Shown here: positions 38,252 through 61,798 of the stretch, piece by piece
How positions within the stretch are numbered: position 1 is the first letter of the stretch
Layout: each line of letters starts with the position of its first letter
Assembly (NCBI GenBank): GCA_046482545.1
Contig: JAWOEX010000035.1
Coordinates: 32,001 to 96,000 of the forward strand
Direction: 5' to 3'
Length of the DNA: 64,000 bases
Origin: Candidatus Thorarchaeota archaeon
GTDB lineage: Archaea > Asgardarchaeota > Thorarchaeia > Thorarchaeales > Thorarchaeaceae
Notes under the pieces: generated by a model
What the model was told of the DNA's origin: nothing
The model's input: only the letters and a program-made list of their open reading frames with translations
Database searches by the model: none
Program-made: the position numbers and the translations under genes

Positions 38252-38352
38252 TGGTGCGGCCGCCGGGATTTGAATTCCCGCGGAAAAGCTATTTCCGTCT
38301 CGGGTCGGAAGCTTGGGAAGCTTCAGTCCTAACCATGCTAGACCACGGCCGC
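38252..38352 (-). tRNA. tRNA-Gly(CCC), CCA encoded, with 24-nt BHB intron at 53/54 (intron 38275-38298)
   Basis: Acceptor GCGGCCG/CGGCCGC, anticodon arm GAAGC-TTCCCAA-GCTTC; central helix CCCG/CGGG with AGA and AAT bulges. Confidence 0.92.
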
Positions 38353-38649
38353 CAAAACGGGAAAACTTGGAATCATGATAAAAGCGTATCGAAAAACACC
38401 CGGCAATGGAGATAGATTTGAGGTAACGAGAACCCTACAAATGTAAGATAGAGAATATCAGAATTTGACGTTGAGCCTAGAGAAATAGAAATCTTACAGA
38501 ATCCTAAATAAATCGGTACATAGAAGTGTAGGATTTCTGTAAGATTCCCTGCTACTTCGTGTAGAAGACAGACCATCGTGTATGCACCAATTCGATATCC
38601 TACCCGCATAGTAGGGGTCTAGCCACCTACATTGAGTGTGTAGACTGTG

Positions 38650-55478: not shown

Positions 55479-57296
55479 GTGTGTGGCATTGTGGGCGTCG
55501 TCCAGAAACGTGGCGAAGTAGCACCTTTTCTTCATCAGGCGTTAAAACGGCTTGAATATAGAGGGTATGATTCAGTGGGCGTGACAACTATTGATGATGG
55601 TGTGCTTCACACTAAGAAGGACAAAGGAAAAATCGATGAAGTTCACAGACGACTGAATCTAGACGATTTGCCAGGAAAGATAGGAATAGGGCATACCAGA
55701 TGGGCTACACATGGAGTCCCTTCACTTCTAAATGCTCATCCTCATTTTGATTGTAACAACGAGGTTGCGGTTGTACATAATGGCGTGATAGACAACTTCA
55801 TGGAATTAAGAAAAGAACTGAAGAAAGATCATGAATTCAGATCAGAAACAGATACAGAAATCATTCCACATATGATTGAAGATTTGCTCAACGAAGGACA
55901 TGATTTGAAAGAAGCTATCGGACGCGTTACAACGAGAATAAATGGAACCTACGCGATTGTTGCTATGAGAGTTGACGAACCAAATCGTATAGTTTGCACA
56001 CGAGATGGTAATCCGTTGGTAATTGGAAAAGGGAAGGATGTCTCATACGTCTCATCAGATATACCAGCATTCCTTCCTATGACAAGGGACATGATTCTTC
56101 TGTTGGACGGAGAAATAGCTACGATTACTTCTCAGGATGTCGATATCGAAAAATTATCGGATGCGTCTAAAGTAGAAAGGGATGCGGTAAAAATCAGTTG
56201 GACCGCCGACCAAGCAGAGAAGGCTGGTTTTCCTCATTTTATGCTGAAGGAAATTCACGAACAGCCGGATGCGGTGCGCAATACCCTGCGGCTTCGAGAA
56301 GAAATCATTGAGAAAGCAGCAAAAATGATTCTTAGTTCCGAGAACATTTACGTAATAGCAATGGGAACCTCAGGTCATGCAGGAATAGCTTCTAGACATA
56401 TGTTTGCATCCATCTCAGGGATCGTTCCTGTTTTTGAATTGGCGAGTGATTTTGAAGATACTGTCTATGATACGTTATCAGAAGAGGATTTAGTACTCGC
56501 CATCACGCAGTCAGGCGAGACTACTGATACTGTCAGTGCAGCTAAATATGCAAAGAAGCTGGGAACGACTGTCCTAGCAGTGACAAACGTAGTAGGCAGC
56601 TCAATTACAAGAGTAGCTGACCATACAGTCATCACCCAAGCCGGGCCAGAAATCGGGGTGGCTGCTACTAAAACATTCATGGTCCAATTGACAGCATTGG
56701 CTCAGATTGCTATTGAGTTGGGGCGTCTCTCCGCTGTAAACGATGACTTCATTGAAACAAAAGAGACTTCTCTTTCCAATATTCCAGATGTAATATCTAC
56801 AGTCATAGCAACCGAGGAAGAAAAAGCAAGAAGAATAGCGGGGATTTACTACGATGCTCCAAGTCTCCTGTTTTTGGGACGAGGAATATCAAGAGCAACG
56901 GCTAGAGAAGGTGCACTCAAACTGAAAGAGATAGCATACAATCATGCAGAAGCATATAGCGCAGGGGAATCAAAGCATGGACCAATAGCCTTAGTTGAGG
57001 AGGGGTATCCAGTCATTTTTGTCGCGCCTCAAGACCAAACAAGAGATAGATTGATTGGTAACATAATGGAAATGAGAGCAAGAGGAGCGTCCATCATAGC
57101 AGTAATTGAGAAGGGCGATGAAGAGCTCGAGGATCTTTCTGATCATGTTTTTCAAATTCCGAGGGGGGTCGAACCGGAGTTTTCAGTGATGCCGTTTGTT
57201 ATACCTTTACAGCTATTTAGTTACTATATGGCTACAAGAAAGGGTTACGATCCTGACAAGCCACGTAATCTTGCTAAATCCGTAACGGTGCTATAG
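55479..57296 (+). CDS. glmS: Glutamine-fructose-6-phosphate transaminase
   Basis: MCGIVG, HTRWATHG, QSGET, KHGP, PRNLAKSVTV. Confidence 0.97.
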   Translation: MCGIVGVVQKRGEVAPFLHQALKRLEYRGYDSVGVTTIDDGVLHTKKDKGKIDEVHRRLNLDDLPGKIGIGHTRWATHGVPSLLNAHPHFDCNNEVAVVHNGVIDNFMELRKELKKDHEFRSETDTEIIPHMIEDLLNEGHDLKEAIGRVTTRINGTYAIVAMRVDEPNRIVCTRDGNPLVIGKGKDVSYVSSDIPAFLPMTRDMILLLDGEIATITSQDVDIEKLSDASKVERDAVKISWTADQAEKAGFPHFMLKEIHEQPDAVRNTLRLREEIIEKAAKMILSSENIYVIAMGTSGHAGIASRHMFASISGIVPVFELASDFEDTVYDTLSEEDLVLAITQSGETTDTVSAAKYAKKLGTTVLAVTNVVGSSITRVADHTVITQAGPEIGVAATKTFMVQLTALAQIAIELGRLSAVNDDFIETKETSLSNIPDVISTVIATEEEKARRIAGIYYDAPSLLFLGRGISRATAREGALKLKEIAYNHAEAYSAGESKHGPIALVEEGYPVIFVAPQDQTRDRLIGNIMEMRARGASIIAVIEKGDEELEDLSDHVFQIPRGVEPEFSVMPFVIPLQLFSYYMATRKGYDPDKPRNLAKSVTVL

Positions 57297-57367
57297 ATTA
57301 CGGCCAGTTGCCTGAGCGGATAAACCTACTAAATCATTTCCACATAGATATGCCAAATAATTTAGAC

Positions 57368-57802
57368 ATTCACACTATTTACGTATATTCACATCATAAA
57401 CATGTGAATGGCGCCAAGACTGTGAACAGCCATTGGTGAAAGGCACGGATATAGTTCTAAGAAGTAAATGGAGCACCCATAACTCTGCTTACTTATGTGA
57501 ATAAGGCCACCCCTTCGTTTCCACTGGAAAACAGCCACGAGCATTATGAAGTACTGTTATGGCTATTCACAAACCAGATAGCAAAGTGAATACTGGAACG
57601 ATTGGAGAAAACTGCGTAATATGCTATAGAAAGCCTATGACGGTTTTTCAATACTCATAGAGTGCTATAAGAGGTTATTTAACCATTTATATGGGAGCAG
57701 AAGGTTTTTGATGGGTATTTTGCGTTATACGACTACTATGCAGATATATACGATTCACATACTCACACTTATTTGCAGAGGATAGTGGGATAATGTGAAT
57801 CG
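57368..57802. repeat. Intergenic array of ATTCACA/TGTGAAT motifs around one ORB box
   Basis: Exact copies at 57368, 57387, 57403, 57496, 57565, 57753, 57794 plus variants. Confidence 0.7.
57509..57529 (-). promoter_or_regulatory. Origin recognition box (ORB)
   Basis: TTCCAGTGGAAACGAAGGGGT matches the archaeal ORB consensus including the G-string. Confidence 0.75.
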
Positions 57803-57841
57803 TTTCAGTATCAAGAGCTATGTGAAATATCAGAGGATTAC

Positions 57842-58471
57842 GTGATTAATTTGGAGAAGAGCGAGCGAACAAATTATGTGTACGAATTCACTTATAGCTC
57901 TGGCCCAGGTTCAAGGGAGATTTTTGAATGTAAATATGTTCAGCCAGATGAAGCTCTTAATCGGTTCAAGAAAATACTGAGACTGACAGAAAGGCCATTT
58001 GATTTCAAGATACTTGTTCATGACGAGGCTACCGGAGAAGAATCCAGTTTTCAGATAAGGGGTTCCGTGGATGAAATGTTCGAGAAATTCAAGGTATTCC
58101 TCGAGACAAGTACGGGTTATGAATTCCGTGCAAAAGAAGCAGCACAAGAATCGATACCCAGTGAAATTGAGTTCGATTCGATGAGTAATTTCGAAAAGAT
58201 GCAAATGATTATCTATGCGTCCTTTAAACACGGAAAATTCTCGTCATTGGATGTTGCAGAAATCTATGAGAGCACATTTAATGACAAAATGCCAAAGAGT
58301 ACTGCCTCAACATATCTTGCGAGAATGTGGGATGAAGGCAATGGTGATCTCGAAAGGTATGGGAATCGCACAGGATACACATACAGACTCAGAACTGAAT
58401 TGAATCAAGTTCAAAACGATATTAAGAAAGCTGAGAAGATTCTTTCTACGTTCCAAATTCACAGCGAATAG
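57842..58471 (+). CDS. Hypothetical protein with C-terminal winged helix
   Basis: FSSLDVAEIY......PKSTASTYLARM...G.LER.G....Y.Y. Confidence 0.7.
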   Translation: MINLEKSERTNYVYEFTYSSGPGSREIFECKYVQPDEALNRFKKILRLTERPFDFKILVHDEATGEESSFQIRGSVDEMFEKFKVFLETSTGYEFRAKEAAQESIPSEIEFDSMSNFEKMQMIIYASFKHGKFSSLDVAEIYESTFNDKMPKSTASTYLARMWDEGNGDLERYGNRTGYTYRLRTELNQVQNDIKKAEKILSTFQIHSE

Positions 58472-58501: not shown

Positions 58502-59818
58502 CTATAGTTTCTTCCGTTGTTCATCAAATTCGATATTGTGTTTCTTCAATTGTTTCAAAATTGGTTCGTATATCTCGGGAATAGTCGGGCGAAACACACC
58601 ACTAAGATTGATTTTTCCCTGTAATATCATATGGCTGGCAATGGCCACCGGAAGAGCAACGGTCCTAGACATGGAAGAATCGCCACCGGGATGACCATAG
58701 TCAATTAGTGTGGATGTTATTTTTTCTTTCTCACCATCAAATTCAACAAGAAATTGGTGGCGCATCACTATCATGTCTCGCTCATTGGGTGCGTATTGGA
58801 GTTTCTCCTCGAATAGGTGACACAAGGCATCTAGTGGGGTTGTAGTGCCTGTGGGAATACGTGTATTTTCAAACAGACCAAGCCATTGTAGCCTGTCTAG
58901 GACGGGACTGTCCATCGGTAAGTCGGCAGATTTACTAACACTAAATCTTATACCTTCTTGATTTGAATTAATTAAATCCATGATCAGTTCTTCATAGGTC
59001 ATTTCATCCATGTCTCTTTCTTCAAGACTAAGGAGACCTAAATCAAAAATCGCCTTTAGCGTCTTGCACCACCCAGGATATCGGAGTGTCCCGCGGATCA
59101 TAGTGTTTGTCTCCGGAATGGAATAAATGTCAATGTAAGAGAGACTGTCTCTATTAGGATACCCTTCAAAAGTGCCCAGTCCTTGAATCTGCATTTGTTT
59201 GCACGTTCCGAAGAGTTCAGAAGCAGGGATGTGGACTTCTTCACCTTCGCGGAGGAAACGGGCATCGTTTGTCCCGGCGAGTAGAACACCTCTGGGACTC
59301 CAAGAAAGCTTGTAGCCAAAAGGATTGTCGTTAGCATCAGGGGCGGGCAAGCCACCTGTATAAGAAGTGAAGCTCTGGATTTTGCCATCTTGAGCGTGAA
59401 CCTGATCGATGATTTTCTTAGCGCTCATATGGTCTATGCCAGGATCTACACCACATTCATTCAATAGAATCACACCGGCTTCTTTCGCTTGCTCATCGAG
59501 AGCCCACATTTCATTAGATATGTATGAAGTGGTGCAGAAAGGGGTTTCATACTCTATTGCTATTTCTGCAGCCTGTACATGGTACGTGTAGGGCAAAAGA
59601 GAGCAAACTAGGTCAGCATTTGAGACCATTCTATCGAGCATTTGATGGTCGGTTTTGATGTTGAATTCTCGGGCTGCAGCATTATCATGCCCACTAACCA
59701 AGTTCACAGCTTTTTCTTTTGTTCTGCTAGCTACAATTAGGTTGTAACCGTGGTTACATAGATAGTCAACATAGGGCTTGGCAACAAGACCGGCACCTAA
59801 ACATAAGATTTCTTTCAT
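58502..59818 (-). CDS. Saccharopine dehydrogenase (glutamate-forming; Lys9/AASS-SDH-like)
   Basis: GAGLVA, SLLPY..H, ECGVDPGIDHM, GGLPAP, YK.SWSPRG, YPNRDS, RGTLRY. Confidence 0.9.
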   Translation of the reverse strand: MKEILCLGAGLVAKPYVDYLCNHGYNLIVASRTKEKAVNLVSGHDNAAAREFNIKTDHQMLDRMVSNADLVCSLLPYTYHVQAAEIAIEYETPFCTTSYISNEMWALDEQAKEAGVILLNECGVDPGIDHMSAKKIIDQVHAQDGKIQSFTSYTGGLPAPDANDNPFGYKLSWSPRGVLLAGTNDARFLREGEEVHIPASELFGTCKQMQIQGLGTFEGYPNRDSLSYIDIYSIPETNTMIRGTLRYPGWCKTLKAIFDLGLLSLEERDMDEMTYEELIMDLINSNQEGIRFSVSKSADLPMDSPVLDRLQWLGLFENTRIPTGTTTPLDALCHLFEEKLQYAPNERDMIVMRHQFLVEFDGEKEKITSTLIDYGHPGGDSSMSRTVALPVAIASHMILQGKINLSGVFRPTIPEIYEPILKQLKKHNIEFDEQRKKL

Positions 59819-59820
59819 TT

Positions 59821-61149
59821 TTATTCCTCCTTTAGATGATCCTTCAAATATTTGTATTGATCTGTTAGATTCCCTCTGTAAACAATGATAGCGTCCTTAA
59901 GCTCACGAGGAAGTTGGAGCTCACTATAGGATGTCGAAAAGTCAGTTGAAGCAAGGGGTGGGATAAAGGGGAGTAAGGTTTCGCTGAAGGAATATGAAGA
60001 TTCCTTGGGCAATTCTGCAGGCAGATTATCCACTGCAACTACGACAGGACCGTCTCCATCTACATCATGGATAATTCTATCGTCTTCTACAACGTATGTG
60101 AAAGCGGGGTTGTTCGGTTTAGTCGATGTTTCAGTGATTTCTATTCCCCCGTTTATATCACATGATATATCCCCAACAATCCTAAGTTTACGGTGACTAT
60201 CACTCCAATGTCGTTTGATGAACTCTTTTGTCAGAAGGCGAGGATACTTTTGACTCCAATATATGCAATTCATCAGAATCGTAAGGTGTGGTACGTAATG
60301 ATGGAATATACCTTCATAGGCTTCAGACCCCTTCTTGTAATAATCCTCTAAGTCAAACTCAGCGGTCTCAGCTATCGGTTTGACCATATGTTCTTCCTTG
60401 AAAACACACTTGTAGATTGTATGTTCCAGGGGTTCCAGATTACCCAAATCGCTTGGATTTACCTCTTTGTGTGGAAGAATGTCAAAAAGCTTCTGTGCTC
60501 CTGAAGAAACATTTCCATAACCTGCAAAACCAACTACAAACGGGAGTGTGGACTTGGGAAGACCCTGATCTTGTATTCGGCCAGCTAATTTGTTGAATTC
60601 GTTCTGTAAATCGTCGAGTCCGTCGCACTCAAGTGTTGGCTTAAGGTCGAGGAATGGGTTTCGATGGATTGCTTCGTATTTGAGTCGCTGGCCAAGCACT
60701 CGTAGTGTATCAGATATGCCAGCCATCCCGGCCCAGTTTCCAAAATAAACAAGACGAGCCCCGTTATCATCGACAATCAATTCATAGTCAAGAAGCGTTG
60801 CTCCAGTTTCAATTATGTGTCTGAGCATAGGCATATTATGTTCTTGACCTTTGATAGTATGACTGAAGTAGACATAGACTTTATCAGATTCGAAAATGGA
60901 GTTGGGCATTTCTTTGAGACCCAGAATAATCGATGCGTTGCCTCCCTTCACAGTAGAAATGGTAGCTCCAGCATTCTTGTATTCTTTGTCGCTGAAAATC
61001 CTTTGATTACTAGGTTCCACAACGAAGTTGATTCCTTCATCATCGATTAGTTTAGCTACATGTTCAGGAACTAGGGGGGTTCTAGCTTCGAAAGCTTTCT
61101 CTTCTTTGCGAATAGCGAAGATAACCATGTACTCACCCGCTTCCAACAA
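59821..61149 (-). CDS. Lysine-ketoglutarate reductase (AASS-LKR-like)
   Basis: E.RTPLVP, FSHTIKGQ..NM, DYE, GYGNVS.GA, DISCD, VDNLP.ELP. Confidence 0.85.
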   Translation of the reverse strand: MLEAGEYMVIFAIRKEEKAFEARTPLVPEHVAKLIDDEGINFVVEPSNQRIFSDKEYKNAGATISTVKGGNASIILGLKEMPNSIFESDKVYVYFSHTIKGQEHNMPMLRHIIETGATLLDYELIVDDNGARLVYFGNWAGMAGISDTLRVLGQRLKYEAIHRNPFLDLKPTLECDGLDDLQNEFNKLAGRIQDQGLPKSTLPFVVGFAGYGNVSSGAQKLFDILPHKEVNPSDLGNLEPLEHTIYKCVFKEEHMVKPIAETAEFDLEDYYKKGSEAYEGIFHHYVPHLTILMNCIYWSQKYPRLLTKEFIKRHWSDSHRKLRIVGDISCDINGGIEITETSTKPNNPAFTYVVEDDRIIHDVDGDGPVVVAVDNLPAELPKESSYSFSETLLPFIPPLASTDFSTSYSELQLPRELKDAIIVYRGNLTDQYKYLKDHLKEE

Positions 61150-61263
61150 ATCTTGCGGTCTACGGCATGTCGGCAGTTACAGTGATTTAACATTTTCCTC
61201 TCAATAACATAATACAGAACTTGAAATTTAGAACATGTGTTCCGGATGTTTGGATGAAATCAA

Positions 61264-61560
61264 ATGAGGTGGTTTTTGTTTCTATATGATTGCAACAGTT
61301 CGAAGGAAATGAATTCAAGAAGGGTTTCTTTTACAAAAAAATTGTATGGTTACAAATATAGATGGAACACGAAAGAAGGCTATAAGGAACAGAAAAAAAG
61401 TGGACTATTAGATTCGTGTATTGGAGCAAACAGAGTCAATGATTCCGCAATATTGATACCCGAAAATTGCTACGAAGAATGTCTGGATCTATTTCTCGAA
61501 TTTCAGGCTATACTACAATTCAGAGTATTTGAAGTGGTGAGAGAAATAGACAAACTGTAA
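61264..61560 (+). CDS. Small hypothetical protein, possible ferredoxin-like (Cas2/VapD-like) fold
   Basis: LFLYD...RR..F.KKLYGY...GLL......SAILIP. Confidence 0.55.
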   Translation: MRWFLFLYDCNSSKEMNSRRVSFTKKLYGYKYRWNTKEGYKEQKKSGLLDSCIGANRVNDSAILIPENCYEECLDLFLEFQAILQFRVFEVVREIDKL

Positions 61561-61568
61561 CAGGATTG

Positions 61569-61798
61569 GTTACACGTGTTCTAATGTTTGTATAACCCCC
61601 TTGTTTCAACTAGAAAAAATAAGAAGAAATGTGAAGGAATATGAGAAAGTATATATATAGGTTAGTGCATATTAATTCATCTGCATTTTTTAAAAGCATA
61701 GACAACAAATATTGGCTACTCCATTTTTTTAGTTCCAATGGAAATAGAGGGGAGTTAGGTACATATTACGTGTATTACAAATATAGAACACGTGTAAC
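61569..61798. promoter_or_regulatory. Candidate replication origin: inverted ORBs flanking an AT-rich unwinding element
   Basis: ORB TTCTAGTTGAAACAAGGGGG (-, 61596-61615) and TTCCAATGGAAATAGAGGGG (+, 61733-61752); AT-rich core; outer perfect 15-bp inverted repeat. Confidence 0.72.

Follow-up and report, generated by a model that had tools for sequence, protein, structure and literature searches.

The DNA analysed here is a 64-kb window (contig C28:32001-96000 of a 3,048,799-bp, 45-contig genome) identified as that of an Asgard archaeon by the close homologues of its proteins, which are named Candidatus Thorarchaeota. The region of interest, 57297-58471, comprises a spacer carrying an origin recognition box (ORB) within an array of short repeats and, directly downstream, a gene for a winged helix-turn-helix (wHTH) protein. 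With a probability of roughly 0.6, this region represents the ORB1-side flank of the chromosome's only origin of oriC1 type, merged with the control sequences of the origin-linked wHTH gene. The protein would act as an accessory or regulatory factor, not as an initiator, and its role in replication initiation is inferred. Comparison shows a single module, conserved across Asgard archaea and Nitrososphaeria, ammonia-oxidising archaea included, that joins ORB1 and the heptamer array to the wHTH gene. The features of the locus, in window coordinates, are as follows.

55479-57296: glmS, the upstream neighbour, ending at the spacer edge
57297-57841: non-coding spacer of 545 bp with ORB1, about 10 TGTGAAT-type half-sites and the putative wHTH promoter
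57368-57427: block 1, nested inverted half-sites (ATTCACA at 57368 and 57387, plus; TGTGAAT at 57403 and TGTGAAC at 57421, minus)
57410-57415: GGCGCC within block 1, abutting the TGTGAAT at 57403; present in all but one of 21 family genomes
57496-57502, minus: TGTGAAT half-site next to ORB1, on its G-string side, at a distance of 4 bp
57507-57531, minus: ORB1, core TCCAGTGGAAA plus G-string, presumed Orc1/Cdc6 binding site
57565-57591: half-site pair (ATTCACA at 57565, plus; AGTGAAT at 57585, minus), beginning 33 bp past the ORB1 core
57603-57609, plus: conserved TGGAGAA, its G and A invariant in the family alignment
57610-57745: moderately AT-rich stretch of variable sequence and constant length
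57753-57800: block 2, putative promoter operator (ATTCACA at 57753, ACTCACA at 57761, TTATTT at 57769-57774, TGTGAAT at 57794, minus)
57842-58471, plus: wHTH gene, 209 aa from GTG, or 206 aa if started from the TTG at 57851
58502-61149, minus: two metabolic genes (saccharopine dehydrogenase-like and AlaDH/PNT-like by Pfam), which divide the wHTH gene from the ORB pair
61596-61615, minus: ORB2
61616-61732: AT-rich spacer of 117 bp, 74% AT, presumed unwinding element
61733-61752, plus: ORB3, inverted relative to ORB2

The exact ORB1 core occurs once in the entire genome, and a looser search for full ORBs (core variants plus GGGG) returns three sites genome-wide, all on the same contig and no more than 4.2 kb apart. 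ORB2 and ORB3, inverted around the AT-rich stretch, constitute a classical core of two ORBs and a DNA unwinding element (DUE) 4.1 kb downstream of ORB1, which shares the orientation of ORB2. An inverted ORB pair is found at 61596-61752, and 57297-57841 contains one ORB without such a partner. The AT content of the spacer is 63%, compared with 58% for the locus as a whole and 74% between ORB2 and ORB3. No initiator gene is adjacent here: cdc6-1 lies 59 kb and cdc6-2 19 kb upstream.

The repeats that surround ORB1 are concentrated in the spacer to an extent seen nowhere else in the genome. Seven exact ATTCACA/TGTGAAT copies are located at 57368, 57387, 57403, 57496, 57565, 57753 and 57794, with inverted pairs at 57387-57409 and at 57751-57760 / 57793-57802, and alignment with relatives reveals degenerate copies at conserved places (TGTGAAC at 57421, AGTGAAT at 57585 and ACTCACA at 57761). 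The other 14 heptamer copies of the window are scattered over its remaining 63.5 kb. Genome-wide, the heptamer is found 582 times (0.19 per kb, or about 0.086 per 450 bp), and the spacer array is its densest cluster, the next best holding 4 and 3 copies; such a concentration far exceeds what chance would produce. An earlier sequence-only reading of this DNA had described the same 545-bp intergenic region between the end of glmS at 57296 and the next open reading frame (ORF) at 57842, with its ORB, seven heptamers, inverted pairs and downstream wHTH gene, all of which are indeed located where it placed them; the motif enrichment that it proposed to check ranks the array first among the genome's heptamer clusters. 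A wider heptamer regulon was considered and rejected, as the runner-up clusters lie inside coding sequence, in an epimerase-like and a cysteine-desulfurase-like gene. In iteron replicons, a Rep initiator binds repeats of about 17-22 bp that run in direct orientation next to a DUE; an assignment of this type was also rejected, given half-sites of 7 bp in both orientations and at varied spacing, and no Rep-like protein.

Within the Thorarchaeota family, the arrangement is maintained. The comparison covered 21 loci, the window's own and 20 fetched orthologous ones, and same-family genomes spanning 16 genera; the wHTH ORF has single-copy orthologues of 60-88% identity in 21 of the 24 same-family genomes sampled. 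An ORB about 320 bp upstream of the wHTH gene and heptamers at matching offsets are present in 20/20 fetched loci, the two opposite-strand metabolic genes are syntenic in all of them, and the order of ORB1, array, wHTH gene, metabolic genes and ORB pair is the same in 21/21 genomes. Where the pair was found in related genomes, ORB1 lies 4.1-4.4 kb from it, which repeats the three-ORB layout. The functional link between gene, ORB and array that the sequence-only reading had supposed is supported by this conservation of order and spacing, and no same-family locus examined combines an orthologue with the loss of ORB and array, the finding that would have spoken against it. Only members of the genus have glmS as the upstream neighbour; in other genera extra coding sequence takes its place, which suggests that the module travels with the wHTH gene.

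The family alignment resolves the spacer into invariant blocks separated by stretches that differ in sequence and hardly at all in length. It begins with the four nested inverted half-sites and GGCGCC, continues with CATAA, and reaches the TGTGAAT that stands 4 bp from the ORB G-string; 33 bp past the ORB follow ATTCACA and GTGAAT, then TGGAGAA and the variable stretch; and the series closes with a nearly invariant ATTCACATACTCACAYTTATTT, a TGTGAAT about 18 bp further on, and the start codon. ORB1 and block 2 stand 223-224 bp apart in all 20 genomes with both anchors, and block 2 contains a 22-mer nearly invariant across 21 genomes. In the half-site at 57496-57502, five positions are invariant and two nearly so among the 21 genomes, and a TGTKAA beside ORB1 recurs in Nitrososphaeria as well as in a number of other Asgard families. 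The block 1 sequence TGTGAATGGCGCC has one occurrence in the genome; its GGCGCC may lengthen the half-site or be the target of a second factor, and TGGAGAA is possibly half of a mini-ORB.

Beyond this family, the locus takes a more compact form in most lineages sampled. A family profile detects a single-copy wHTH homologue in 158/201 Asgard genomes, and a gene that had been called an orphan thus proves widespread, the profile also matching one gene in 134/201 genomes of the phylum that holds Nitrososphaeria. Representatives of about 20 Asgard families encode a homologue of 140-175 aa, usually preceded on the minus strand by an ORB whose distance to the start codon is 250-415 bp, and an ORB pair is found 0.4-1.6 kb away to either side. 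Over many Asgard families and Nitrososphaeria together, such an ORB stands 170-415 bp ahead of the wHTH start codon. In other Asgard families, the cdc6-1 orthologue (47-61% identity) usually adjoins the wHTH gene: in some it is divergent and placed about 450-700 bp upstream, in others it follows in tandem, about 600-830 bp past the wHTH start. Five closed Asgard genomes have 1-4 full-ORB hits each genome-wide. Four have every hit, or the majority, no more than 1.3 kb from the wHTH gene; the fifth has three hits, one of them at a distance of 5.3 kb. The best cdc6 match is within about 5 kb of the gene in all five. The linkage of the wHTH gene to ORBs is tighter than that of the initiator gene.

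In most lineages sampled, comparison thus shows the module within about 1.5 kb of an ORB-DUE-ORB core, usually beside cdc6-1. This bears out the suggestion of the sequence-only reading that the site 4 kb away could belong to the same origin. No metabolic-gene pair separates the wHTH gene from the ORB pair in the compact loci sampled from other lineages, and in view of these compact origins the Thorarchaeota form is best read as a putative compact ancestral origin split by a two-gene insertion, with cdc6-1 moved out. Where cdc6-1 and the wHTH gene share a contig in the family, they lie 60-150 kb apart, and in the majority of genomes the distance is about 60 kb.

One wHTH subfamily maps to Nitrososphaeria, where ten loci were compared. 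A minus-strand ORB with G-string lies 150-250 bp upstream of the wHTH gene in 8/10 of these, most have several TGTGAA/TGTTAA copies, and a cdc6-1 orthologue stands alongside in 9/10; in three of those Nitrososphaeria genomes, the ORB hits are few genome-wide and fall at the wHTH locus. Closed Nitrosopumilus-type genomes possess a cdc6-wHTH spacer of 450-675 bp with an AT-rich stretch and ORBs interleaved with 7-13 copies of TGTTAA(C). A passage in PMC5797428 places the origin of Nitrosopumilus genomes at this cdc6-wHTH locus, and a marker-frequency map giving a single origin in N. maritimus is cited in a passage of PMC4010727. In a quick tree, the Asgard and Thermoproteota wHTH sequences form separate supported clades, which fits old vertical inheritance. 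In several closed assemblies of the same phylum, the wHTH gene was observed 0.3-3 kb from the start or end of the deposited sequence; given this position, it could serve as a practical origin marker.

The same breadth of sampling indicates which DNA the protein may recognise. Over 79 loci, TGTKAA reaches 14.4 per kb within the 480 bp that precede the gene, compared with 1.28 per kb elsewhere, an enrichment of at least fivefold in 64 of them. The prevailing motif changes with the predicted recognition helix: where this reads S-T-x-S-T-Y-L, TGTGAA is dominant in 33 loci and TGTTAA in none, and where it reads S-[VI]-[VI]-S-T-Y-L, TGTTAA is dominant in 14 loci and TGTGAA in one. Such co-variation is expected if the helix reads position 4 of the motif. 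The Val/Ile state requires at least three changes on the tree, one in Asgard (in a family, f7, that is sister to a Thr-bearing one) and two in Nitrososphaeria. It can be strongly inferred that the wHTH protein, probably as a dimer, binds the TGTGAAT/TGTKAA half-sites through this helix, and the array binding proposed by the sequence-only reading accordingly appears very probable.

The position of the half-sites suggests two consequences of such binding. Judged by archaeal TATA-to-start spacing, TTATTT at 57769-57774 is the candidate TATA box of the wHTH gene; two half-sites stand just upstream of it and one about 20 bp downstream, at the expected transcription start, and sites bracketing the presumed TATA box suggest autoregulation. 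From these sites the wHTH protein would repress its own gene. On the half-sites flanking ORB1 at fixed distances (a gap of 4 bp on the G-string side, one of about 33 bp on the far side of the core), it would become a neighbour of Orc1/Cdc6. It might then tune Orc1 occupancy at the origin flank, or couple its own expression, and ancestrally also that of cdc6-1, to the state of the origin. The number of sites, their fixed spacing and the survival of block 1 where it has no divergent gene to serve favour a higher-order complex over a minimal operator. It is tempting to extend this scheme, tentatively, to many archaeal oriC1-type origins: these may contain a third conserved component, an origin-encoded winged-helix factor with TGTKAA sites interleaved with ORBs, vertically inherited since before the split of Asgard and Thermoproteota and acting with or against Orc1 in licensing or timing.

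Several observations weigh against an origin flank fused with a gene's control region. GC and Z-curve skew along the 238-kb contig C28 have no clear turning point at 90-94 kb. In the Thorarchaeota family, the heptamers are not conserved at the ORB-pair core, and the promoter of the relocated cdc6-1 is likewise devoid of conserved heptamers, the palindrome present there in this genome not being kept even within the genus; with the array missing from both places, there is no support here for direct action on the unwinding site or on the control of cdc6-1. In some lineages (families f3, f5, f15, f23 and f24), the patterns used pick up no ORB in the vicinity of the gene, or few repeats. Because kin are not independent, the co-variation of helix and motif amounts to two or three events, not 48 loci. 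The promoter assignment, finally, depends on a single TATA-like hexamer.

Part of the evidence may also be read as plain transcription control, with the wHTH protein as an autorepressor (ancestrally also a regulator of divergent cdc6-1) and ORB1 as a mere Orc1 operator that does not affect initiation. This explanation is possible but rather doubtful. It is consistent with sites that bracket a TATA-like box, with the position of the module in the divergent or upstream promoter region of cdc6-1 in many lineages, with a fold shared with the small repressors PadR, CopY and MecI, and with an array unique in the genome, as for a dedicated autoregulator. However, about 10 sites over 430 bp at invariant spacing exceed the needs of a simple operator, and the flanking gene, whether glmS or another coding sequence, runs into the module, so that block 1 serves no divergent promoter. 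Moreover, the wHTH gene stays with ORBs even where cdc6-1 has been relocated, and in Nitrosopumilus-type genomes its sites are interleaved with the ORBs of the origin itself. ORB1 and the array may instead exert remote control over the initiator, through datA-like titration or sequestration or as the loop anchor of a bipartite origin. For Haloarcula oriC2, a cluster of ORBs close by has been suggested to exert negative control (PMC4010727), and here a single strong ORB, oriented like ORB2, is kept at 4.1-4.4 kb from the core in the relatives with an identified ORB pair; nevertheless, one ORB is little for titration, and both the distance and the side of the ORB pair vary among lineages, from 0.6-1.6 kb on either side to 4-6 kb, which makes this explanation unlikely.

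The sequence-only reading had called the region a second origin-like one and pointed to WhiP. A second, independent origin fired by a WhiP-like wHTH initiator acting on iterons would fit a gene that adjoins repeats and an ORB, and Sulfolobus oriC3 with whiP offers a precedent (PMC4010727). Activity of Sulfolobus oriC1, however, requires both flanking ORBs (PMC12141716); this requirement, a lone ORB and the modest AT content (63% versus 74% at the ORB pair) make a separate origin at 57.3-57.8 kb unlikely. The protein has one winged helix without a Cdt1/WhiP signal, the half-sites are of 7 bp and bidirectional in place of long direct iterons, and overall a second origin appears very improbable. 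The DNA at 57.3-57.8 kb is not where unwinding starts, and the chromosome, on these features, has one predicted origin, not two. The constant length of the spacer across the genera of the family might also point to a structured RNA or a small-protein gene, to which hardly any credence can be given. Rfam yields zero matches in the spacer; RNAalifold applied to 21 aligned modules predicts pairs only among the invariant heptamer repeats, with a covariation term of 0.02; and a hidden small ORF is contradicted by stops in every frame of both strands in nearly all genomes.

As for the wHTH protein itself, its predicted structure (mean predicted local distance difference test score 83) consists of an N-terminal domain of two beta-beta-alpha units, a disordered linker, the winged helix and a long C-terminal helix. 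Shorter homologues retain only the second beta-beta-alpha unit: residues 12-91 (57875-58110) form two similar units compared with one in other lineages, and the extra one looks like an internal duplication or a family-specific N-terminal addition. No Pfam or NCBIfam model scores above threshold for the window protein, and profile matches in homologues are weak: Penicillinase_R in 22/40 (best E 1.7e-6) and CopY/TcrY (TIGR02698) in 17/40 (best 1.3e-7). The winged helix of the predicted model matches PadR, ArsR, MarR and MecI regulators with Z of about 8-8.7; the best structural matches (Z 8.7, root-mean-square deviation 3.6-4.4 over 91-96 residues) are within the generic wHTH range. A PDB sequence search with the family profile gives only weak ArsR/BlaI-type matches, the N-terminal domain alone finds no informative fold match (best Z 5.6), and all family members met are named "hypothetical protein" in their sources.

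An initiator of the WhiP/Cdt1 type was considered and rejected, the protein having one winged helix and a domain of two beta-beta-alpha units, not tandem Cdt1-related winged helices. Winged helices of Cdc6, ORC and Cdt1 rank no higher than generic hits in the structural comparison, with Cdt1 C-terminal domains at ranks 24 and 38, and no Cdt1 family is among the Pfam matches common to members. Neither sequence nor fold supports the analogy with WhiP/Cdt1 drawn in the sequence-only reading, which had also proposed this structural comparison. Of its suggestion of a co-initiator or regulator, the accessory or regulatory part remains probable and the initiator part is abandoned; a partition-type factor, its other suggestion, finds no support here, with no ATPase partner at the locus and no repetition of the array elsewhere in the genome.

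Comparison with known systems places the locus closest to oriC1-type origins such as those of Sulfolobus, Pyrococcus and Nitrosopumilus. It shares with them ORBs with G-strings, an AT-rich stretch enclosed by two inverted ORBs, a third ORB oriented like ORB2 and, in most relatives sampled, an adjacent cdc6-1 orthologue. Unlike in those origins, ORB1 here is 4.1 kb from the core with three genes between and cdc6-1 59 kb away, and it sits in an array of a second motif outside the described origin anatomy. In the bipartite bacterial origins of B. subtilis and H. pylori, dnaA lies between two clusters of DnaA boxes, one of which has the unwinding element. The likeness would lie in initiator boxes on both sides of a gene and one cluster with an unwinding element, whereas the initiator system is another and the enclosed gene here is not an initiator. 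Together with the ORB-cluster titration proposed for Haloarcula oriC2 (PMC4010727), these origins serve as analogies for how far ORB1 lies from the core. The repressors of the BlaI/MecI/CopY and PadR types appear to resemble the wHTH protein in the fold of the DNA-binding half and in the C-terminal helix, and their operators contain TGT-bearing half-sites in inverted pairs, as here. In BlaI/MecI/CopY, however, the wHTH domain is N-terminal and the dimerisation domain C-terminal, while here the order is reversed, the wHTH being C-terminal and the extra domain N-terminal; there is also no sensor or protease partner and no match at curated cut-off, and the protein would act on an array beside an origin.

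In function, the nearest counterpart is UBP, the second sequence-specific protein needed at Sulfolobus oriC1 (PMC12141716): as with UBP and its ucm motif, a second DNA-binding protein with its own motif would operate at an Orc1-dependent origin. UBP is an abundant nucleoid protein with more than 300 sites, which binds one ucm inside the DUE via beta-hairpins and for which no origin-side gene location is reported (PMC12141716). In contrast, the present factor has a winged helix and one array outside the DUE, and its gene is fixed beside the sites. With WhiP and oriC3 of Sulfolobales, only the presence of a non-Orc winged-helix gene beside origin DNA is shared; WhiP is Cdt1-related and its origin has no ORBs, whereas a single PadR/CopY-like winged helix with an unrelated alpha/beta domain is found here at an ORB-bearing, cdc6-linked origin.

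The literature searched, with incomplete coverage, contains no description of this wHTH family, its motif or Asgard origin anatomy. Archaeal initiation is usually described in terms of ORBs and Orc1/Cdc6, to which accessory UBP was added recently, and for Sulfolobus only. An unnamed single-copy wHTH family is a concrete candidate for how origins are regulated in Asgard archaea and Nitrososphaeria, and for Asgard genomes in which cdc6 has moved away, its module offers a practical marker of the origin. The correspondence of Thr or Val/Ile in the helix with TGTGAA or TGTTAA provides a ready specificity test, and some members grow in culture.

Further elements were observed at the initiator genes and around the ORB pair. 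Upstream of cdc6-2, at 38254-38355 on the minus strand, there is a tRNA-like sequence, its CCA end encoded and its T-arm region interrupted by an insertion, for which neither ARAGORN nor Rfam makes a call. The relocated cdc6-1 promoter combines GTAATACGTA..TTTAT with mini-ORBs: at contig C28:29831-30130, this conserved box is followed by 2-3 mini-ORBs without G-strings before the start codon, which suggests possible autoregulation by Orc1/Cdc6. A 98-aa ORF at 61264-61560 ends about 35 bp from ORB2, and its 3' half aligns family-wide with a coding-like pattern, indicating that a small conserved gene abuts the origin core. The ORB-pair region also has a flanking palindrome of its own, GGAACACGTGTTCC, a motif distinct from the heptamers. 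Palindromes of this type at 61228-61243, 61566-61584 and 61776-61798 flank each ORB of the pair and are conserved family-wide, and the same type is found in related family loci around 13.4-13.9 kb of the fetched stretches.

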